A stretch of DNA of 34,087 nt from positions 1-34,087 of the IMG/VR virus record IMGVR_UViG_3300019996_000005; one strand, given 5' to 3'. Position 1 is the first letter of the stretch, and each line of letters begins with the position of its first letter. The stretch comes from a virus (lineage: Duplodnaviria > Caudoviricetes). Both the position numbers and the translations under genes were made by a program. Under the pieces are notes generated by a model. The model was not told the origin of the DNA and ran no database searches. It saw only the letters and a list, made by a program, of their open reading frames with translations. Of this stretch, positions 8,747 to 31,602 are shown one piece after another.

Positions 8747-9061
8747 CTATCGAGTCGCCGGCCGGCTCGCGTTCATCGCTTGCCGCAAGAGCTCGTTAAC
8801 GCGTGTCTGGTATCCTTCGCCGGACGATTTGAGCCACGCGAGTACATCCGAATCAAGGCGCATTGTGACGGTCGCTTTCCGCGGCCGGAAATGCACGAGC
8901 ACGGCATCGTCTGGAATCTCGGGCGCGTCGGACAGGTCGATATCTTCATCGCGCTTCGGGCCGTCGATAATCATTTTTTTGATATCCGCCTTTTGTTTGG
9001 GCGTGAGCGGGTCGCCTGGTTCCTGGTTGAATACTATGGTTTTACTCGAAGTTTTCGACAT
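8747..9061 (-). CDS. brnA: BrnA-family antitoxin
   Basis: IDLSDAPE...RPRKATVTMRLDSDVLAWLKSSGEGYQTRVNELLR signature; overlaps brnT. Confidence 0.9.
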   Translation of the reverse strand: MSKTSSKTIVFNQEPGDPLTPKQKADIKKMIIDGPKRDEDIDLSDAPEIPDDAVLVHFRPRKATVTMRLDSDVLAWLKSSGEGYQTRVNELLRQAMNASRPATR

Positions 9062-9326
9062 AAAGGGTGCTCTCTTTGCGAGTGGCGCGGCGCGCGGAAA
9101 TGATGCGGATGGTTTGCTCGTTATCGCGGTACGTGTGAACAACAGTCAGTAGCAGCAAGGCGCCGCGCGAGCTACCAATCGCTTGCCAGCGTTGCTCGCC
9201 GTCAATGAAATGTTCATCGCATATCAAGCAATTGCGGTCAGCAAACACCGTCGCGGCAACCTCAAACGAAACGCCGTGCTTTCGTTCGTTGCTCGCCGCT
9301 TTCGCTTCGTCCCATTCAAACCGCAT
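9042..9326 (-). CDS. brnT: BrnT-family ribonuclease toxin
   Basis: FEWDEAKAASNERKHGVSFE...IRIISARRAT signature. Confidence 0.92.
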   Translation of the reverse strand: MRFEWDEAKAASNERKHGVSFEVAATVFADRNCLICDEHFIDGEQRWQAIGSSRGALLLLTVVHTYRDNEQTIRIISARRATRKESTLYVENFE

Positions 9327-9671: not shown

Positions 9672-9741
9672 ACCTTTTAGCTTAACTTGAGCGGTGCTCG
9701 GTTGTCCACCGGCGCCGGCCGCAATCTTTTTTGCAATTGCG

Positions 9742-9822
9742 CTTGACACGTCCGCTCAAGTCAAGTATGATTGGAAATGTAGACGACAGCCGCGAGGCTT
9801 AAAAGAGCGAAGGAAAAACCAA
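9742..9822 (+). promoter_or_regulatory. Cassette promoter/operator/leader copy A
   Basis: TTGACA-N17-TATGAT; CTTGAC-N12-GTCAAG dyad; leader GTAGACGACAGCCGCGAGGCTTAAAAG.GCGAAGGAAAAA. Confidence 0.9.
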
Positions 9823-11025: not shown

Positions 11026-11049
11026 TCCTCAATCTTTTTATCCTTCGCG

Positions 11050-11128
11050 CTTGACAATTCCGCTCACGTCAAGCATACTAAAAGAGTAGACGACAGCCGC
11101 GAGGCTTAAAAGCGCGAAGGAAAAAAGC
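11050..11128 (+). promoter_or_regulatory. Cassette promoter/operator/leader copy B
   Basis: TTGACA-N17-CATACT, same dyad and leader. Confidence 0.9.
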
Positions 11129-11523: not shown

Positions 11524-11536
11524 ATTTAAAAATTCT

Positions 11537-11617
11537 CTTGACATTTCCGCTCACGTCAAGCATACTAAAAGAGTAGACGACAGCCGCGAGGCTTAAAAGC
11601 GCGAAGGAAAAAAGACA
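11537..11617 (+). promoter_or_regulatory. Cassette promoter/operator/leader copy C
   Basis: TTGACA-N17-CATACT, same dyad and leader. Confidence 0.9.
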
Positions 11618-12040: not shown

Positions 12041-12331
12041 ATGCCGTACGATCTGGAACGGCGCGACGGGCTTTGTGCCAAGTGCGCGCAGTGGAAACGG
12101 CCGACGCGCGCCTATATGGCGTTGCTCAAGTCGCGAGATTTGCCGTACGTCTGTCAGAAATGCCGCGAGGCTTCGCCGGCGCCGGCATTCAAGCTCGGTA
12201 CGCTCGGGTACTTTGTCCTAAACGGGCGCCGCGATCGAGCGGGCGAAACGGCGGAAACGCCGCACAATCGCCCGCTCACTTATAAAATTCTCTTGACATT
12301 TACGCTCACGTCAAGCATACTAAAAGAGTAG
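12041..12331 (+). CDS. Hypothetical Zn-finger-like protein (reads through repeat copy 4 and promoter D)
   Basis: GGAGG RBS; CAKC...CQKC. Confidence 0.6.
   Translation: MPYDLERRDGLCAKCAQWKRPTRAYMALLKSRDLPYVCQKCREASPAPAFKLGTLGYFVLNGRRDRAGETAETPHNRPLTYKILLTFTLTSSILKE
12237..12277 (+). repeat. 41-bp inverted repeat element, copy 4
   Basis: GAGCGGGCGAA-acggcggaaacgccgcaca-ATCGCCCGCTC. Confidence 0.9.
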
Positions 12332-12369
12332 ACGACAGCCGCGAGGCTTAAAAGCGCGAAGGAAAAAAC
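12292..12369 (+). promoter_or_regulatory. Cassette promoter/operator/leader copy D
   Basis: TTGACA-N17-CATACT, same dyad and leader. Confidence 0.9.
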
Positions 12370-14974: not shown

Positions 14975-15000
14975 GTGCATGATGTATGCCGATTGCCGTT

Positions 15001-15043
15001 TGAGCGGGCGAACGGGCGGACGCGTCGCACTTTCGCCCGCTCA
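15001..15043 (+). repeat. 41-bp inverted repeat element, copy 6
   Basis: GAGCGGGCGAA-cgggcggacgcgtcgcact-TTCGCCCGCTC; abuts extended -10 TGgTATTCT (15047-15055). Confidence 0.92.
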
Positions 15044-15061
15044 TTCTGGTATTCTCGGGCA

Positions 15062-15544
15062 ATGGCAAAAAAACTCGAATTACTCACAAAGCAGATTGCG
15101 GCCGATCGTCTGGAATTGAGCGTACGCCGGATTATCGAACTGTCGGCGCCGGAAGTCGGCTTGTTCACGCGGCATCGCGCGTTTGATCCTGAGACGAAGC
15201 GTGAAGCGATCATGTTTGACGCGGCCGAAATCGAGGCGTACCGGCGCGACGCGGCGACGAAGCCGGCGCCAGGTGCGCTCGCCGTCCGGCCGTCGCGGTT
15301 GCCGCTCGACGATTACGATATCGACGACGCCGCGGATACCGGCGCCGGCCGGCTGTGGCTCACGCTCGCCGAAGCCGCGGCGTACTCGGGGTTGCCGGCG
15401 TCGCATTTGCTCGCCGAGATCAACTCGGGCGAGCTCGCCGCGCGTGATGTTGGCGTCCGGCCTGGTGGACATTGGCGAGTGCGCCGGCTCGATCTGGACG
15501 CGATCGAGGGCAAGCGCGCCGGCGCCCGCTCGTTGAGAATTTGA
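15062..15544 (+). CDS. Excisionase-like (HTH_17) DNA-binding protein
   Basis: WLTLAEAAAYSGL...INSGELAA...GGHWRVRRLDL; likely leaderless start 6 nt after extended -10. Confidence 0.75.
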   Translation: MAKKLELLTKQIAADRLELSVRRIIELSAPEVGLFTRHRAFDPETKREAIMFDAAEIEAYRRDAATKPAPGALAVRPSRLPLDDYDIDDAADTGAGRLWLTLAEAAAYSGLPASHLLAEINSGELAARDVGVRPGGHWRVRRLDLDAIEGKRAGARSLRI

Positions 15545-16002
15545 GCGATTTTGCCTTTTCTTCGCGATTTCTTCGCGTTGACTTCCACGTGAAATTGGCG
15601 TTAGCCTTGTCTCGGTTGCAATTTGCTATACCTTGGTCGGGGCAGGGAAGTGGTTTGCGGGGGGGAAATTCCCTGCATCAGTCCACCGGAGACGGACTCC
15701 CCGTCGTCTGCAGGTGCGTGCTTTCGAGCTCACATTGCAGGGGATATTACGTTGCCGACGCCGGCGACGGCCGGTTGAATCCCGATCGGCGGGCGCCGTC
15801 TCGCGTGTAACCGCAATTCCGCCGTAAGCGGCGCCCAACATGGGGGTTAACCGAATGTTGGGCTATTGTGATATCGTAAACACGACTAAAAAAGTTTTCG
15901 GACCGGGGGCGCCGTTTCCGTCATCAGAAACGGAAATGGCGCGATGTTATCAGCATCGCGCCGTCCAAAAAGGCCGAGAACGGAAACCGTGCGAGGTGAA
16001 CC

Positions 16003-17508
16003 GTGCTACGACCGGAAACTGAAACTAGCATACCATTACCCGCGAAAAAGCGAGCGGCGAAAAGCGAATTTTCGTCTAATATTTCAACGACTTCCGATAA
16101 CGAATATTCTGTTAGCGGACCTGATAGTCCTATTCCTGAATTGCCTTTCGAGGGCGGATTCACGGCAATTGACAAGGCGGCAAGTAACGCGCTTGCGCGC
16201 CGAACAAACGGCGTTGAATACAAGATTGTGGTTTATATTTTCGGTCGCACCACGTCGGCCGCGCGCCGGCCGGAATATGCGGATATTTCGATGGGTGAGT
16301 ATCGAGCCTTGACCGGCGCAACGGAACGGACGATATATCTTGCGCTTGCGAGCCTGCAGGCAAAAAACTTCGTAGCGCGTGATGCGCGCGGCCGTATCAA
16401 GGTGCGTCCTGAAAATTTCGGCTCGTTGCCGTTGCCAGGTGCGCGTACTTGCCGGCCACGGCCGATCACGGCCGAAGTGCGGGCGCCGTCGTCGATCGCG
16501 GCTCTTGCGGTACTGGATGGCGCGGACGAACCGGAGCAAGACGAACTGAAGTTAACTGCAGTAAGAAAGGGAGTCAGTGAGGATCAAACGACGGAACGAC
16601 AATTTTCTGAATGCGGCGCTCGCGAGGAGTGCGAAGGGACTCTCGGACCTACCGGAAATCTACCGTATGCGGAGCCAGATTCAACCGTGGGTGACCTGGG
16701 AAGCGGGCAAGATGCGGATTCAGCGGAATGCTGCAACGGCGGAAGTGATAGCGGCGGCGAAGATGGAAGCGGGCGAGCGGACGGCGACACAGCAACTATG
16801 GATAGTGGCTATGTCGTCTTTGATTCCCGAGCCGGTTACGGGCTTTACTTGGTACGTCACAAGTTAGCCGCGCGCCTGAAGTTAACTGCAGTCCGGCCAG
16901 GTTGCCGGCCGCGGGAAGCGGCGCCCGCACTGAAGTTAACTTCAGTGAAACCTGAAGCTAACTGCAAAAAACCTGAAACCTACTGCCCTTGGAATTGGGC
17001 ATGTCCTCATTTATCAACGGCTTCGCCGCTCGTAAGCATTGAAACAAGAAACATAAAAGAACCGACGACGACGGGCGCCCGCTCGCCGTTGCCGGCCGAA
17101 ACCGAAAACGCGTATTTAGCACGTTTTCTGGACCCTGCTACACGCATCGGCGAAGCTCTGCAAATCGACGATGACGCGGCCGGCCGCATGTGGCGCGCGT
17201 CGATCGCGCGCAATCCCGAGCTCACGCCGCGGGAGTTTGTATTGATCGTCCGCATGAAGCTGCAGGAGTGGCGCCGTGTGGACGATACGTCGCCTGGTAT
17301 ACGCGTGCGATCGCTTACGGGCTTGCTGATGCGTTCGATGCCGTCGGCCGTCGTCGGCGCCTTGCATTCGCTCGCGCGTGAGCAGGCGCCGGCCGATCTG
17401 GAACGGGACTGCGAAGCGGCGCGCGCATACCTTACGTACGCCGTCGCAACGCCGCGCGATCGGGCATGGGCTCGCGCCATACTCGCCGAAGCCGAATCCA
17501 AAACATAA
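16003..17508 (+). CDS. Replication initiator, lambda O-like wHTH N-terminus
   Basis: IVVYIFGRT...DISMGEYRALTGATERTIYLALASLQAKNFV; internal iteron array; GAGG RBS. Confidence 0.7.
   Translation: MLRPETETSIPLPAKKRAAKSEFSSNISTTSDNEYSVSGPDSPIPELPFEGGFTAIDKAASNALARRTNGVEYKIVVYIFGRTTSAARRPEYADISMGEYRALTGATERTIYLALASLQAKNFVARDARGRIKVRPENFGSLPLPGARTCRPRPITAEVRAPSSIAALAVLDGADEPEQDELKLTAVRKGVSEDQTTERQFSECGAREECEGTLGPTGNLPYAEPDSTVGDLGSGQDADSAECCNGGSDSGGEDGSGRADGDTATMDSGYVVFDSRAGYGLYLVRHKLAARLKLTAVRPGCRPREAAPALKLTSVKPEANCKKPETYCPWNWACPHLSTASPLVSIETRNIKEPTTTGARSPLPAETENAYLARFLDPATRIGEALQIDDDAAGRMWRASIARNPELTPREFVLIVRMKLQEWRRVDDTSPGIRVRSLTGLLMRSMPSAVVGALHSLAREQAPADLERDCEAARAYLTYAVATPRDRAWARAILAEAESKT
16090..16117 (+). 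other. dif-like XerC/XerD site 1
   Basis: ACTTCCGATAA-CGAATA-TTCTGTTAGCG; 9/11 and 7/11 to B. subtilis dif arms (ACTTCCTAGAA, TTATGTAAACT). Confidence 0.55.
16546..16988. repeat. Iteron-like 16-bp repeats, putative origin (16546, 16876, 16930, 16952, 16973)
   Basis: CTGAAGTTAACTGCAG x2, CTGAAGTTAACTTCAG, CTGAAGCTAACTGCAA, CTGAAACCTACTGCCC; last three spaced 22/21 bp. Confidence 0.75.
16577..16867 (+). CDS. Nested out-of-frame ORF (96 aa) within rep, between direct repeats
   Basis: AAAGGGAG RBS then GTG; fills the 330-bp interval between two 17-bp repeats. Confidence 0.4.
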   Translation: MRIKRRNDNFLNAALARSAKGLSDLPEIYRMRSQIQPWVTWEAGKMRIQRNAATAEVIAAAKMEAGERTATQQLWIVAMSSLIPEPVTGFTWYVTS

Positions 17509-17773
17509 TTGCGTTTGTTCGTTTTTGCTCACAATCTCAAGGCATCGGGTGATTCCTTATATCCGTCGTCTGCATAAATGGGATAGCCTTGTAGCCGAAC
17601 CGCAACCATGCAACATTTGCCCGCACGAGGGGCGATAGGATGTGCGGTTTTAGGCGCGTACCACGCGTTTCGGGTGCCTTTTCTCTCCGTTTTTGGAGCG
17701 AATTGCCCGAAGCTCTCGGCTCTCCTGATTCCGTAGGGAATTTTTGCCTTTTCCTCCCCCGAGGTGTTTCCTC

Positions 17774-18097
17774 ATGAGAATTTCTGTATTAAACCCTGCA
17801 GGCGATAGGATTTACGAAGTCCACCAAGGCGCCGCAATCCGAATGCTTGAAAAAGCGCAAGCGAAGATTGCGAGAAGCGGGCGCGCACTACAGTTAATCG
17901 GAATCGGCGAGGTTGCGCCGGATGGACTCGCCGGCCGAACGCATACGAGCCGCGGCGGTTTGCTCGCCGTGATTGGCCGAAGCCAGCAATACACGACGGC
18001 GAACGGCCGCGGCCAGGTGGACGGCTTCAAGCAGATTTATCCCGAAGATCGCGACGTTTTCCGCTCGGCGATACTCGATTGCATGGTGACGCAATGA
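17774..18097 (+). CDS. Hypothetical protein, weak RRXRR/PLMP-like N-terminus
   Basis: GAGGT RBS; ISVLNPAG...AIRMLEKAQAKI...LQL. Confidence 0.7.
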   Translation: MRISVLNPAGDRIYEVHQGAAIRMLEKAQAKIARSGRALQLIGIGEVAPDGLAGRTHTSRGGLLAVIGRSQQYTTANGRGQVDGFKQIYPEDRDVFRSAILDCMVTQ

Positions 18098-18285
18098 CGA
18101 TCGGCGAACTCAAGCAGGCGATCGCCGCGCTTGACGACGGGCTAGAAATTGAGATAATCGCCCGATATGAGGATGACGACGGCGACGAAATCGAGCGTAG
18201 CTACGATCTGTCCACAGTCGGCGCCGTCATGGATCCAGACACGGCGGGAGAATATGCGCGCTTCGAGTGCGTCGAGCTCGATTAG
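18094..18285 (+). CDS. Small acidic protein (MTIGEL type)
   Basis: ATGA coupling; resembles 22496-22720. Confidence 0.7.
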   Translation: MTIGELKQAIAALDDGLEIEIIARYEDDDGDEIERSYDLSTVGAVMDPDTAGEYARFECVELD

Positions 18286-19588
18286 CGGCGCAACGCCGAT
18301 CAATTTTAACCGTTTGCCGGCCGGCGTCACGGCCGACGAAATCGCGGCGACGGCCGCGAGCTTGAGCGAATCGGAAATCCGCGATTTGCTCTATTGTTGG
18401 GAGCTTTGGAGCCGGCGCGAGCAAGAATGGCCGGCCGGCGATTGGCGCTTGTGGCTTATCATGGCCGGCCGCGGCTACGGCAAGACGCGGACGGGCGCCG
18501 AGACGGTGCGCCAGGTGGTGAATCAGGCGCCGCGGCAACGCATCGCGCTTATTGGGCCGACGGCCGGCGACTGTAGAGAAGTCATGGTAGAGGGTGAATC
18601 GGGCTTGCTTTCGGTGTTTCCGCCATCGCAACGGCCGATCTATGAGCCGTCGAAACGCCGCGTCACGTTCCATAACGGTACGCGGGCGTTTCTGTACTCG
18701 GCAGAGGAACCGGAACGGTTGCGCGGACCGCAACACGGCTTCGCCTGGTGCGATGAAATCGCGGCGTACGCGAAGCTAAAAGACCTTTGGAGCAACCTGC
18801 AATTCGGCTTGCGGCTCGGCGATGATCCGCGGATTCTCGCGACGACGACGCCGAAGCCGATCAAGTTTTTAAAAGACTTGCTCGCCGATCCTGGTACGGT
18901 CGTTACGCGCGGCTCGACGTTCGACAATCGGGCGAACTTGCCGGCATCGCAACTCGCCGATTTCGAGCGGGTCTATGGCGGTACGCGCATTGGTCGGCAA
19001 GAGCTCGGCGGCGAACTCTTGGAAGAATCCGAGGGCGCCTTGTGGACGCGCGAGGCGATCGAGCGGGCGCGCGTGCGCTCGGCGCCCGAGCTCGTGCGAA
19101 TCGTGATTGCGATTGATCCGGCGACAACGAGCGGCGAAGATTCCGACGATACGGGTATTTCGGCGTTCGGCATCGGCGCCGACGGTGACGGCTATGTACT
19201 CGCCGATGGTACTTGCCACCTTGGGCCGGCAGGTTGGGCGGCGCGCGCCGTGGGGATGTTCGACGGGCACGAAGCCGATAAGGTGATTGGCGAAGCCAAC
19301 AACGGCGGCGATATGGTAGAGCTCACGATGCGAACCGAGCGGCGCAATATCCCGTACGAGAAGGTGCACGCGAGCCGCGGCAAAGTGGCGCGCGCCGAGC
19401 CGATCGCGGCGCTATACGAGCAAGGGCGAATCCATCACGTCGGCAGTATGCCGGCGCTTGAGGATGAAATGGCGAATTTCGTACCGGGGCAGATGAAGAA
19501 ATCGCCGAACCGCGTGGACGCGCTCGTGTGGGGTGCGTCGTATCTGATGCTCAAGCCGGCGCGCGTCGGCCGTGTGTTGAGCTTATGA
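18254..19588 (+). CDS. terL: Terminase large subunit
   Basis: Walker A AGRGYGKT, Walker B AWCDE, TTTP coupling motif, IAIDPA nuclease motif; start uncertain. Confidence 0.95.
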   Translation: MRASSASSSISGATPINFNRLPAGVTADEIAATAASLSESEIRDLLYCWELWSRREQEWPAGDWRLWLIMAGRGYGKTRTGAETVRQVVNQAPRQRIALIGPTAGDCREVMVEGESGLLSVFPPSQRPIYEPSKRRVTFHNGTRAFLYSAEEPERLRGPQHGFAWCDEIAAYAKLKDLWSNLQFGLRLGDDPRILATTTPKPIKFLKDLLADPGTVVTRGSTFDNRANLPASQLADFERVYGGTRIGRQELGGELLEESEGALWTREAIERARVRSAPELVRIVIAIDPATTSGEDSDDTGISAFGIGADGDGYVLADGTCHLGPAGWAARAVGMFDGHEADKVIGEANNGGDMVELTMRTERRNIPYEKVHASRGKVARAEPIAALYEQGRIHHVGSMPALEDEMANFVPGQMKKSPNRVDALVWGASYLMLKPARVGRVLSL

Positions 19589-19936
19589 CCGATCGCCCGC
19601 GGGACAACGGTTTAGTTGTTGTAGACGACTAAGCGAAGGAAACCGCGGGCGCCCGGCCGGTTTGAGTTTATCACGATGACACTTGCCGAATTTGCAATTG
19701 CGCGCGTGGCCGGCCAGTTGGTACGCGACGCCGGCAAGCGCGAATTGACGCCGGACGAATGGCGGTTACTCCACAAATCTTTCGCCGGCAATGGCGCGCA
19801 TCGAAGCGCGCGAAGCCGGCGCCGCGGAATCGCCGGCATTGTCCACCGGCGAGGGGCGCCCGAAATCGGCAAATATACCGGGGGGTATAGGGTAAACGGG
19901 CGCCCGCTCGTTTCGTTCGGCAATACGGAGGTTGCC

Positions 19937-20071
19937 ATGCTGAATATTCGATTTGCGTTACTCTTGCTCGCGTTTCTATCGCTCGGCGCCGCGGCCGTCG
20001 GCGTGCCGTCGCGCGTTAACTTGGTTGCGGCGGGCTTGGCGCTTTGGGTACTCGCGGTGATTATCGGATGA
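19937..20071 (+). CDS. Small two-TM membrane protein (holin candidate); frame also open from 19676
   Basis: GGAGG RBS; two hydrophobic helices in 44 aa. Confidence 0.6.
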   Translation: MLNIRFALLLLAFLSLGAAAVGVPSRVNLVAAGLALWVLAVIIG

Positions 20072-20077
20072 ACCGGC

Positions 20078-20123
20078 GATCGGGCGAGCGAAGCGGCGGA
20101 ATCTCCGCACCTTCGCCCGCTCA
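20078..20123 (+). repeat. 41-bp inverted repeat element, copy 7 (between convergent genes; contains the stop of the 20121 gene)
   Basis: GGGCGAGCGAA-gcggcggaatctccgcacc-TTCGCCCGCTC. Confidence 0.9.
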
Positions 20124-20609
20124 ATCACTACATGCCGACTGGAACCGCGGGAAGTCGCGCGCCGCGGCTTGCACGATCTCGTTAAGCGCCTGCAGGAGCT
20201 CGGCGGCGCCGTCGAACGTGACGACAAGCCGGCCGGCTTCAAGCGCGATATTTGCCGGCAGATCGGCGAACGCTTCGGACCGAGCGGGCGGTACGGCGAT
20301 CGAGCGGGCGGCGAGCACGCGGCCGGCTTCGGCCAGGTGCGCGCCGACGCGTTCGACGCGGCGGGCTTCATACTCGAAATCGTCGGTACGGGCGATCTTA
20401 CGAACCCATGCGAGGGCTTGCCGGCGTACGACGACGTGCGAGGCGCCGGCTTGTATGGCGCCCATGCGCCGCATGAGCCGGCCGGCTTCGGTTTGCGAAA
20501 CGTGGAATATGCTTTCGATCGCGCGACGGTCTAAGAACGGCTCGGCGATCGCGTTTAAGTGGCGCTCGATCGTCGCAAAGTCGCGAAACCATTGGGGTTT
20601 TCGGGGCAT
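20121..20609 (-). CDS. Hypothetical protein, probable N-terminal HTH; adjacent to dif-like site 2
   Basis: LDRRAIESIFHVSQTEAGRLMRRMG HTH-like segment; antisense inside the packaging operon. Confidence 0.7.
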   Translation of the reverse strand: MPRKPQWFRDFATIERHLNAIAEPFLDRRAIESIFHVSQTEAGRLMRRMGAIQAGASHVVVRRQALAWVRKIARTDDFEYEARRVERVGAHLAEAGRVLAARSIAVPPARSEAFADLPANIALEAGRLVVTFDGAAELLQALNEIVQAAARDFPRFQSACSD

Positions 20610-20654
20610 CGGCGGTACTCGGTTATTCTACTGCGTTTCGGCAAGGTCTAACCA

Positions 20655-20682
20655 AGTTTACCTATCGCACCTTATCGGAAGC
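20655..20682 (-). other. dif-like XerC/XerD site 2
   Basis: GCTTCCGATAA-GGTGCG-ATAGGTAAACT; 8/11 and 9/11 to B. subtilis dif arms; intergenic. Confidence 0.6.
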
Positions 20683-20701: not shown

Positions 20702-22051
20702 ATGCCAGTAATTGAACGTGTGCTATCACGGCTCGGGCTCTCGCGCAAGGCGGACGTACCGATTATCAACGACGGCCGCGGCAATCTGCCGAGCATTCGC
20801 GTCGTCGGCGGAACCGGCTTGCCGTCGGCCAGGTGGACCGGCCAGGATTACGCGGGCATGGCGACGAACGGGTACGCGCTCAATAGCGACGTGTACGCCT
20901 GTATTTCGCTGATTGCCGCGGCCGGCAAGCAGGTTAAGTGGTGGGATGCCGGCAACGGTTCAAAGGCGCACACGCCGGCGCCCGAGCTCGCGAAGGCGAT
21001 CGGCCGCGGCGCCGACGGGCTCTTAGTCGGCGGCGACGAAAAGGCGCGCGAGCGGCATATCAAGCTCGTGACGAATCCGCGGCCGTCGATCGAGCTCTTG
21101 ACGAAAGCGGGCGGCGCCGGCTTCATTGAGGCGTGGTTGTCTTACATCCTGATTGCCGGCAATAGCTACATCGAAATCGAGCGCGCCGGCGATGCCGTGA
21201 CGGGCAAGCCGTCAATGCTCTACCTGCAACGGCCGGACCGCTTGACGGCCGTTGTACGGGCGCCTGGTGCCGTCGCCATGCAAATGAGCGAATCACAGTT
21301 AGTCGATCGGTGGACGGTCACGGCGTACGGCCAACGGCGCGACGTGCCAACGGACAACATCACGCATTCCAAGCTATTCAATCCGACCGATGATATTTAC
21401 GGCATGGCGCCGCTACAAGCGGCGCTCTTGCGCGTGGACGCCGAAAACGAAGGGCTCACGCTCATAAAACGGATGCTGCAACGCGGGTTTTCGCCTGGTT
21501 GGATTGAGGCGCGCGAAGATTCGGAATGGAGCGATACACAAGTAGCTCAGTTGAAAGAACGGGTCAAATCGAGCAAGTCGGCCGGCGAAGAACTGTTTTT
21601 AGAAAACGCGAAATGGCATCAAATGGGCTTCAATCCCGTTGATTCCGGCGTTACCGAGCAACAGATTTTGAGCAAGCGCGATATCGCGAGCGTCTTTCAT
21701 GTGCCGTCGCAATTGATCGGCGACGCGCAAACGCAGACGTACAGCAACTATCAAGAGGCGCGGCGGGCGTTGTACATGGAAGCGGTGATTCCGTTGCTGC
21801 AGCACTTCCGCGGCGACTGGAACCGGACGATCGGCGCCGCGCTCGGTTCGCCGCTCGACTTCGATAAAGACTCCTTCGACGCGATCACGGCCGCACGGCA
21901 AGAGGCGACGGACCGCGTTGTAAAATTATTCACGAGCGGACTGATAACGCAAGCCGAAGGGCGAAGCGATCTAGAGTACGGGCCGGCGCAACCGGACGAT
22001 ACGTTTTATGCGCCGGCAAACTTAATGCCGCTCGATCGGACGGGCGACTAG
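20702..22051 (+). CDS. Portal protein (HK97 family)
   Basis: VYACISLIA, GNSYIEI, RPDR, YGMAPLQAA, IASVFHVPSQLIG, TYSNY motifs. Confidence 0.93.
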   Translation: MPVIERVLSRLGLSRKADVPIINDGRGNLPSIRVVGGTGLPSARWTGQDYAGMATNGYALNSDVYACISLIAAAGKQVKWWDAGNGSKAHTPAPELAKAIGRGADGLLVGGDEKARERHIKLVTNPRPSIELLTKAGGAGFIEAWLSYILIAGNSYIEIERAGDAVTGKPSMLYLQRPDRLTAVVRAPGAVAMQMSESQLVDRWTVTAYGQRRDVPTDNITHSKLFNPTDDIYGMAPLQAALLRVDAENEGLTLIKRMLQRGFSPGWIEAREDSEWSDTQVAQLKERVKSSKSAGEELFLENAKWHQMGFNPVDSGVTEQQILSKRDIASVFHVPSQLIGDAQTQTYSNYQEARRALYMEAVIPLLQHFRGDWNRTIGAALGSPLDFDKDSFDAITAARQEATDRVVKLFTSGLITQAEGRSDLEYGPAQPDDTFYAPANLMPLDRTGD

Positions 22052-31138: not shown

Positions 31139-31602
31139 GCAACCTGTTAGCTTGCTCCGTTATTATTTCGCTCGACGGGCAAGAGTACGTAATCCGGTAT
31201 CGTGCGCTAGCATTCATTCAGTACGCGTCGGAATGCGGCGGCGATCTGCTCAACGACGTACGGCGCATCGGCTCGGAGCTCGTTGCGGCCGGCAAGATGG
31301 AGGGGCGCGAAGGCTTGGGAGCACCAATCGCAACCATGCGCGATATCCTATGGGCCGGCCTGGTGGACGCGCAACCGATTCTGAAACGTGATGACGTTGC
31401 GCGTATGTTCGGTTTCCGCGAAATGGAACCGATTATGCAAGCGATCAGCGAAGCCTTGCGGTTGAGTATGCCTGAAATCGACTTGACTAACAACGCTCGC
31501 CCTACCGGAGCCCGGAGCCGTTCTCCCTTACCAAATGGGGAAGACTCTGGGCCTACTTCCGCGAACGAATCGGTCTTAGTGCCGACGACTTCAAAGAACT
31601 GA
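31135..31602 (+). CDS. Tail assembly chaperone (gpG-like)
   Basis: Between tube and TMP; RDILWAGL motif. Confidence 0.8.
   Translation: MSNLLACSVIISLDGQEYVIRYRALAFIQYASECGGDLLNDVRRIGSELVAAGKMEGREGLGAPIATMRDILWAGLVDAQPILKRDDVARMFGFREMEPIMQAISEALRLSMPEIDLTNNARPTGARSRSPLPNGEDSGPTSANESVLVPTTSKN

Follow-up and report, generated by a model that had tools for sequence, protein, structure and literature searches.

IMG/VR virus record IMGVR_UViG_3300019996_000005 (Duplodnaviria; Caudoviricetes) is a closed genome of 34,087 bases (direct terminal repeats, 127 nt; 100% complete), the whole of which we refer to as the window, and our subject is a pair of 28-bp sites within it that resemble dif, the site used by host XerC/XerD. 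Its genes are those of a siphophage-type tailed phage (terminase, portal, HK97-type capsid, tail tube and tape measure). Site 1 (16090..16117, + strand; ACTTCCGATAA CGAATA TTCTGTTAGCG), a dif mimic and likely attP, occupies codons 30–39 of an open reading frame (ORF; 16003..17508, +) that encodes 501 amino acids and is likely a lambda-O-like replication initiator. Site 2 (20655..20682, - strand; GCTTCCGATAA GGTGCG ATAGGTAAACT), likely a dimer-resolution site, has a core of the Xer type; its spacer is private and variable, and its XerD arm is close to canonical. It lies between ORF162 (20121..20609, -), a member of an Acidobacteriota mobile-element family, and the portal gene (20702..22051, +), which starts 20 bp from the XerC arm. 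The large terminase subunit is encoded between the two sites (18167..19588, +; Pfam and PHROG). The original prediction, that this phage exploits host XerCD at two sites to integrate and/or to resolve dimers, gave the coordinates and strands of both sites correctly and named an excisionase-like gene near the first, which proves to be a genuine Xis-like/HTH_17 gene (14975..15544, +; Pfam and PHROG, HTH_17 E 3.3e-9) about 545 bp upstream; what it lacked was the location of site 1 inside ORF 16003–17508.

Profile and hidden Markov model (HMM) searches bear out the absence of a recognisable recombinase. Neither a tyrosine nor a serine recombinase was detected in the window by five routes of search, including scans of 54 selected ORFs against Pfam and PHROG, searches of all six frames with PF00589, PF00239 and PF07508, and local tyrosine-recombinase and XerD profiles run against 556 six-frame segments (best E 0.27). 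Neither a Pfam scan nor a local ParA profile detected ParA or another partition gene in the window, the hallmarks of circular plasmid prophages of the P1/B83 type (a partition ATPase and a resolvase of their own) were not found there, and family scans with Pfam and PHROG detected no CI-type repressor.

Both sites match dif arms. A profile of host dif arms gives 25.5 bits at site 1 and 23.0 bits at site 2, the top two scores in the genome and above all 200 dinucleotide shuffles (best at most 21.1 bits, second best at most 13.0 bits), although for site 1 the measure is partly circular, the profile having been built from host sites found with the site-1 core. The 10-mer shared by the two sites, to which attention had been drawn earlier, does have two exact matches in the genome but is weak evidence alone: four matches occur at up to one mismatch against 2.06 expected, a count reached by 14 of 100 shuffles and not significant. 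A weak dif-like palindrome near 31588 was discarded, as it falls within the shuffle range.

Site 1 is identical at 24 of 28 positions, the first 19 of them consecutive, to the dif predicted for Solibacter usitatus (listed in supplementary file 2 of Kono et al., PMC3025954). The 19-base core, comprising the XerC arm and spacer, was found at 24 loci in a scan of one genome per species, of which 23 are labelled Acidobacteriota (20 of these being Bryobacterales, Bryobacteraceae or Solibacter) and the remaining one is a Syntrophomonadaceae bin; the XerD arm is canonical in all 24. It occurs in 16 of 401 Bryobacterales genomes, singly in 15 and as a tandem pair in one, compared to none for the reversed control. 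When the spacer was left free, 46 of 121 genomes had exactly one site, with 18 kinds of spacer among them, and a random spacer would match one of these 18 with p ~0.003. Since host spacers vary to this extent, the spacer is clade-specific and the phage carries a real one. The XerC arm of site 1 scores 19–21 bits and the XerD arm only 0.1–7.1 bits, compared to 6.3–14.8 bits for the XerD arm of site 2 and a host mean of 18.1. A canonical XerC arm, an identical central region and a divergent XerD arm make up the attP pattern of TLCphi and the gonococcal genetic island (GGI), and the window combines, as do integrative mobile elements that exploit Xer (IMEX), the lack of an element-encoded integrase with a dif mimic compatible with host dif. 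XerD is encoded in all five hosts checked. Judged from these sequence comparisons, site 1 is quite probably the attP of the phage, and the proposed use of host XerCD is in this respect well supported. Two of the hosts (L055/L113, L062/L075) are unusual at dif: one has a tandem partial duplication of the site and another an assembly break exactly there, perhaps the mark of a variable insertion.

The XerC arm and spacer are also kept in five distinct relatives with a homologous initiator (L001, L002 and L142, found by protein queries, and L018 and L045, found by motif), and the XerD arm varies. Among the six genomes 18 of the 19 core bases are invariant, as are five of the six third positions of codons within the core, compared to 6 of 100 in the winged-helix region. 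When relatives' contigs were compared with the region, differences were listed at 16095 and from 16113 on but none at 16096–16112. The site is in frame in five of these six close genomes; in L045 compensating indels (10 bases deleted, 1 inserted) shift the reading frame through it, yet the 19 bases are unchanged. In a distant syntenic phage, G411 (terminase 69%; 99% complete, without a PF00589 or PF00239 match), the counterpart of site 1 again lies at codon 30 of an initiator, here remotely homologous (hhalign 93%, E 3.3e-7), and its spacer, CAGATA, is another of the spacers known from hosts. Because L045 reads the site in another frame and G411 keeps codon 30 with another host spacer, the constraint acts on the DNA. 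The same core is present in non-coding DNA ahead of the replication operon of an unrelated phage, G006. There (L133 6102–6157) a weaker inverted copy directly abuts the dif-like site, and together the two could in principle form a long, imperfectly matched hairpin reminiscent of the paired attP of CTX.

The ribosome site (GAGGT) and GTG start of the initiator ORF lie upstream of site 1 and are conserved, and the winged-helix domain lies just downstream. Comparison with the Atlas gives Phage_rep_O clusters (0.95), and taken with weak profile matches this suggests that the ORF is a likely, though unproven, lambda-O-like initiator. Its structural model (predicted local distance difference test, pLDDT, 62) matches generic winged helices only. 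As in genes of the lambda-O type, there are repeats within the gene: four dyad repeats of the form CTGAAG(T/C)TAACT.. (16545..16970, +), with two or three copies in three relatives and one in a fourth; these are likely iterons belonging to an internal origin. Two relatives have no ATG, GTG or TTG in the stretch from the spacer to the winged helix. A simple scan for a sigma-70 promoter at 15400–16200 found none.

We consider it reasonably probable that the phage integrates at dif through host XerC/XerD at site 1, cutting its own initiator gene, and that dimers are resolved at site 2; integration is something we infer from sequence, no junction having been found. Recombination of site 1 with host dif would leave one junction with the degenerate XerD arm, a poor substrate for excision, as in GGI, and would regenerate a canonical dif at the other. 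The crossover would part the promoter, start and first 35 codons of the initiator from the rest of the gene, so that the prophage would begin with a headless initiator and the promoter would end up at its far end. Cut off from promoter and start, the initiator would be inactive and replication would stay off until excision; given integration, such silencing is very probable. That no CI-type repressor was detected would make an integration-coupled switch useful, without proving it. As site 1 would be a poor substrate for recombination with itself, a second site with a private spacer could resolve dimers without integrating. ORF162 may have come with site 2 from plasmid resolution modules and may act there as an optional architectural or regulatory factor, assisting or regulating the reaction. 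A bolder version, in which one siphophage lineage of soil Acidobacteriota leaves all site-specific recombination to host XerCD via two specialised sites, integration is the lysogeny switch and ORF162 is the first example of a new, large class of accessory or directionality factors for Xer, seems to us rather doubtful.

Several observations weigh against integration at site 1. No attL/attR junction was found at any of the 24 genome loci with the site-1 core, in eight metagenome matches, at 101 viral loci with a canonical dif, or in six sequencing runs, three of which are possibly the source; and in the probable source run a 7,779-nt contig spans site 1 unbroken. Searches with terminase in 401 Bryobacterales genomes and with the initiator profile in 301 turned up no close prophage, and no genome of a host containing this phage came to light. 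These searches covered species-representative genomes and assembled contigs, and since such genomes and contigs drop rare forms, the negatives do not show absence. The complete relative G007 carries another initiator allele and lacks both site 1 and a recombinase, and the lineage can therefore live without site 1. G006 encodes a small serine resolvase of its own. G411, L018 and L045 were found through motif searches, and the host spacer of G411 is partly built in, as the search pattern allowed 16 spacers, eight of them known host spacers, and thus favoured host spacers though not the position at codon 30. The assignment of the initiator draws on weak profile matches (phrog_678, E 0.002–0.03 in four of six members), and in the window, L050 and L047 a TTG in frame just before the winged helix could let a shortened initiator be made. 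The probable host (Bryobacteraceae/Solibacter) was assigned by dif match and gene families alone, and no XafT-like activator was identified in the window, XafT itself not having been compared.

Two further findings were examined and set aside. A contig end at 16109 in run X4 marks the point where two relatives diverge, and a 63-kb metagenome contig with two copies of site 1, considered as a prophage, holds two different phages, both in attP form: the relatives L048 and L050 stand 34.5 kb apart on it, each with an intact site 1, and it is probably an assembly join.

Site 2 is kept in all five relatives that carry ORF162, and a motif scan of IMG/VR for it returned exactly the contigs of those five. 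Its arms score 11–16 bits (XerC) and 6–15 bits (XerD), and its spacers, of four kinds in six phages, lie 2–4 mismatches from the nearest of the 18 host spacers and match none of the 46 host dif sites. XerC and XerD arms with a spacer unlike chromosomal dif are the combination seen in cer and psi. A comparable site in inverted orientation stands between the terminase and portal genes of G411; its XerD arm is canonical-like and its spacer is not a host one. We rejected site 2 as a second attP, as none of the 46 host sites has its spacer type or an A at the first base of the XerD arm. Integration and dimer resolution, offered together in the original prediction as one "and/or", can thus be separated, site 1 fitting the former and site 2 the latter; on its sequence, we put resolution of phage circle dimers by site 2 at slightly better than even.

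Adjoining the XerD arm of site 2 is a 14-bp dyad (20640..20653, -), self-complementary at 8 of 14 positions in the window and at 10–14 of 14 in five relatives, which from its sequence is a candidate ORF162 binding site or accessory site; together with a -10-like element it lies upstream of ORF162. The interval between terminase and portal is a variable cargo region. In L001 a gene of about 138 codons (1385–1800) is inserted between site 2 and ORF162. Site 1, site 2 and ORF162 assort independently, since G411, L018 and G007 carry different combinations: ORF162 was not found in G411, in which both sites are present; L018, a 40% fragment, carries site 1, but at the syntenic place both site 2 and ORF162 are missing; and G007 carries ORF162 and the Xis-like gene but no site 1.

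The 162-amino-acid gene is no orphan, as had been thought, its family comprising 1067 representatives at 50% identity, mainly from Acidobacteriota where taxa are recorded. Neither ORF162 nor its alignment of 122 members gave a Pfam family, apart from scattered weak matches. The model (pLDDT 93) has a predicted Xis/MerR-type winged helix (~residues 22–75), a long helix and a small C-terminal alpha/beta domain. Structural scores are middling: GIsul2 Xis and Pukovnik Xis align over 51–52 residues with Z 5.2 and a root-mean-square deviation of 2.1, EF-hand proteins score equal or higher, and Foldseek returned nothing at E<0.001.

The family is present in 33 of 201 Bryobacterales genomes. Genome context was taken from HMM searches of Bryobacterales, the wide alignment being too diverse for a pattern-based locus search, and of 37 loci the 25 with an intact N terminus were retained (those left out were one duplicate, five truncated genes, four insertions in large proteins and two short weak matches); close homologues were not found in the genome contigs searched. 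An inverted repeat, GATAA-N6-TTATC, stands within 200 bases upstream of 13 of the 25 homologues compared to 1 of 369 control windows, and a tyrosine recombinase is nearby at 10 of the 25 loci and ParA at 11; these counts are not independent, because about seven loci are near-copies of one element. The company of Xer-like sites, tyrosine recombinases and ParA places ORF162 in plasmid-type resolution/maintenance modules; at the phage locus the module lacks its recombinase, and the arms of the site are of the XerC and XerD types. The N-terminal domain also matches an internal insertion in Bryobacterales proteins of 870–960 amino acids (L107–L110); we ruled out that these are FtsK, the match being an insertion in unrelated large proteins. 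That ORF162 acts on recombination is possible, at somewhat less than even chances. A role of the Xis-like protein at site 1 specifically is not supported, because its gene is also present where site 1 is absent. The idea of phage-encoded accessory factors is thus the weaker part of the original interpretation, which taken as a whole is partly supported.

Of the alternatives to integration at site 1 with dimer resolution at site 2, the one that survives best is a plasmid-like or lytic circle without productive integration, both sites resolving its own dimers and site 1 being a captured copy of dif. The lack of any junction and the complete G007 without site 1 agree with this, as do a BrnTA toxin-antitoxin pair in the window, the association of the ORF162 family with ParA and resolvase-type genes, and the common need of plasmid prophages for dimer resolution (PMC8026635). 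However, a self-resolving site need not keep a host spacer, and it is the spacers of site 2 that drift and that of site 1 that is host-identical; moreover the degenerate XerD arm belongs to site 1, and the window has no detected ParA or partition gene. We regard this explanation as unlikely.

A strong form of the accessory model, in which ORF162 or the Xis-like protein is an XafT-like activator driving integration at site 1, draws on the activators described for TLCphi and VGJphi (PMC9226527, 10.64898/2026.06.12.731946), on G006, which pairs a core like that of site 1 with an ORF162 homologue and lacks site 2, and on the predicted Xis-type fold of ORF162. It is quite unlikely given the distribution of these genes (ORF162 not found in the 99% complete G411 nor at the syntenic place in the L018 fragment, and both genes in G007 without site 1), and GGI, whose arms show the same pattern, is described as integrating through FtsK alone (PMC5357621). 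There is little chance that the sites serve purely as binding sites, with XerC(D) at the 5' end of the initiator repressing or timing replication and site 2 forming part of an ORF162 promoter or operator. The perfect XerC arm and poor XerD arm of site 1 would suit such a role, as would the -10-like element and dyad adjoining site 2 and the inverted repeat upstream of ORF162 homologues at 13 of 25 loci; but binding alone needs no 6-bp spacer, yet that of site 1 is invariant and identical to the host's; site 2 also occurs in G411 without ORF162, and in L001 another gene stands between it and ORF162. That site 1 arose by chance or follows from conservation of the protein, or that the two inverted sites flip the 4.5-kb segment between them, is very improbable, for although five of the six close genomes read site 1 in frame and the sites are inverted, the frame-shifted reading of L045, the invariant third positions and the intergenic G006 copy contradict the former, and the spacers share only one of six bases and no strand-change joint between the sites was listed in the sequencing runs.

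Integration at site 1, if it occurs, has partial precedents. In mycobacteriophage BPs and in SSV1 the attP lies inside a phage gene (repressor and integrase, respectively), and the crossover splits the gene and alters the protein; these differ in using a phage integrase and in splitting a repressor or integrase rather than an initiator. A tailed IMEX is in itself not new, because Legionella phage LME-1 integrates at dif with host XerL. The LME-1 genome is about 30 kb. This phage is short-tailed, and its prophage is described as stabilised by a modified junction (PMC9765430, PMC12407071); it differs from the window phage, which is long-tailed with XerC/XerD-type arms and two sites, in its tail and its single recombinase. 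The precedents cited in the original prediction, filamentous phages and satellites, were thus incomplete, gokushoviruses and double jelly-roll (DJR) phages also using dif.

The closest likeness is to TLCphi and GGI, which lack their own integrase and in which, according to the accounts covered, the XerC arm and central region of attP and difGGI match host dif and the XerD arm is degenerate (PMC9226527, PMC5357621). The window phage likewise has a double-stranded DNA attP with a degenerate XerD arm and no integrase of its own; it differs in being a complete tailed Acidobacteriota phage with attP in the initiator ORF and a second, private Xer site, in having no XafT homologue found in the window, and in that its integration is inferred only. 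For site 2 the model is ColE1 cer and pSC101 psi, which share an XerCD core with a spacer unlike dif and resolve dimers with accessory DNA-binding proteins (PMC5357621); no PepA/ArgR-type region is shown at site 2, and the candidate accessory gene ORF162 is element-encoded and optional. Known plasmid prophages are described as mostly carrying their own Xer-like resolvase (PMC8026635). Enterogokushoviruses, DJR phages of the dif type, CTXphi and VGJphi are also integrase-less with dif mimics (PMC7062461, PMC12715192), but they are small and non-tailed, CTX uses a folded single strand, and an attP in a replication gene does not appear in the descriptions of them covered here. Neither an Acidobacteriota IMEX nor an attP inside a replication initiator appeared in the literature searched, mostly at the level of title and abstract and with few subscription journals. 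An attP inside the initiator gene with a second private site looks new, and the arrangement is likely an integration-coupled replication switch in a two-site IMEX.

Integrase-less tailed phages are usually scored as lytic, and if this reading is true the lysogeny of a group of soil phages is hidden in a 28-bp site, the host can be read from a 6-bp spacer and recombination doubles as a replication off-switch. Outside Proteobacteria it would also provide an XerCD system open to testing; for Acidobacteriota, which are hard to engineer, it would supply a candidate integration tool, and for the unannotated ORF162 family of >1,000 clusters a lead to function.

Dif mimics may be common in phage and plasmid contigs: 101 viral contigs (L143–L243), mostly low-GC, have a canonical dif-like site with many different spacers. 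Five high-GC viral contigs (L278, L280, L295, L297 and L301) have dif-like cores in which the spacer is of host type and the XerD arm degenerate, and are candidates for further tailed IMEX; in L280 and L295 a tyrosine recombinase lies near the core. Elsewhere in the window, the BrnT/BrnA pair is encoded at 8747–9326, beside a DUF932 gene (Pfam). An 85-nt promoter-like or leader repeat in 3–4 copies (9719–9821, 11042–11126, 11529–11613 and 12284–12368) heads small early genes in a cassette-like array. A hairpin repeat of about 45 nt, terminator-like or resembling repetitive extragenic palindromic elements, is present at gene ends in eight copies (4790, 9379, 11475, 12229, 14994, 20074, 26781 and 29656) and occurs in relatives too.

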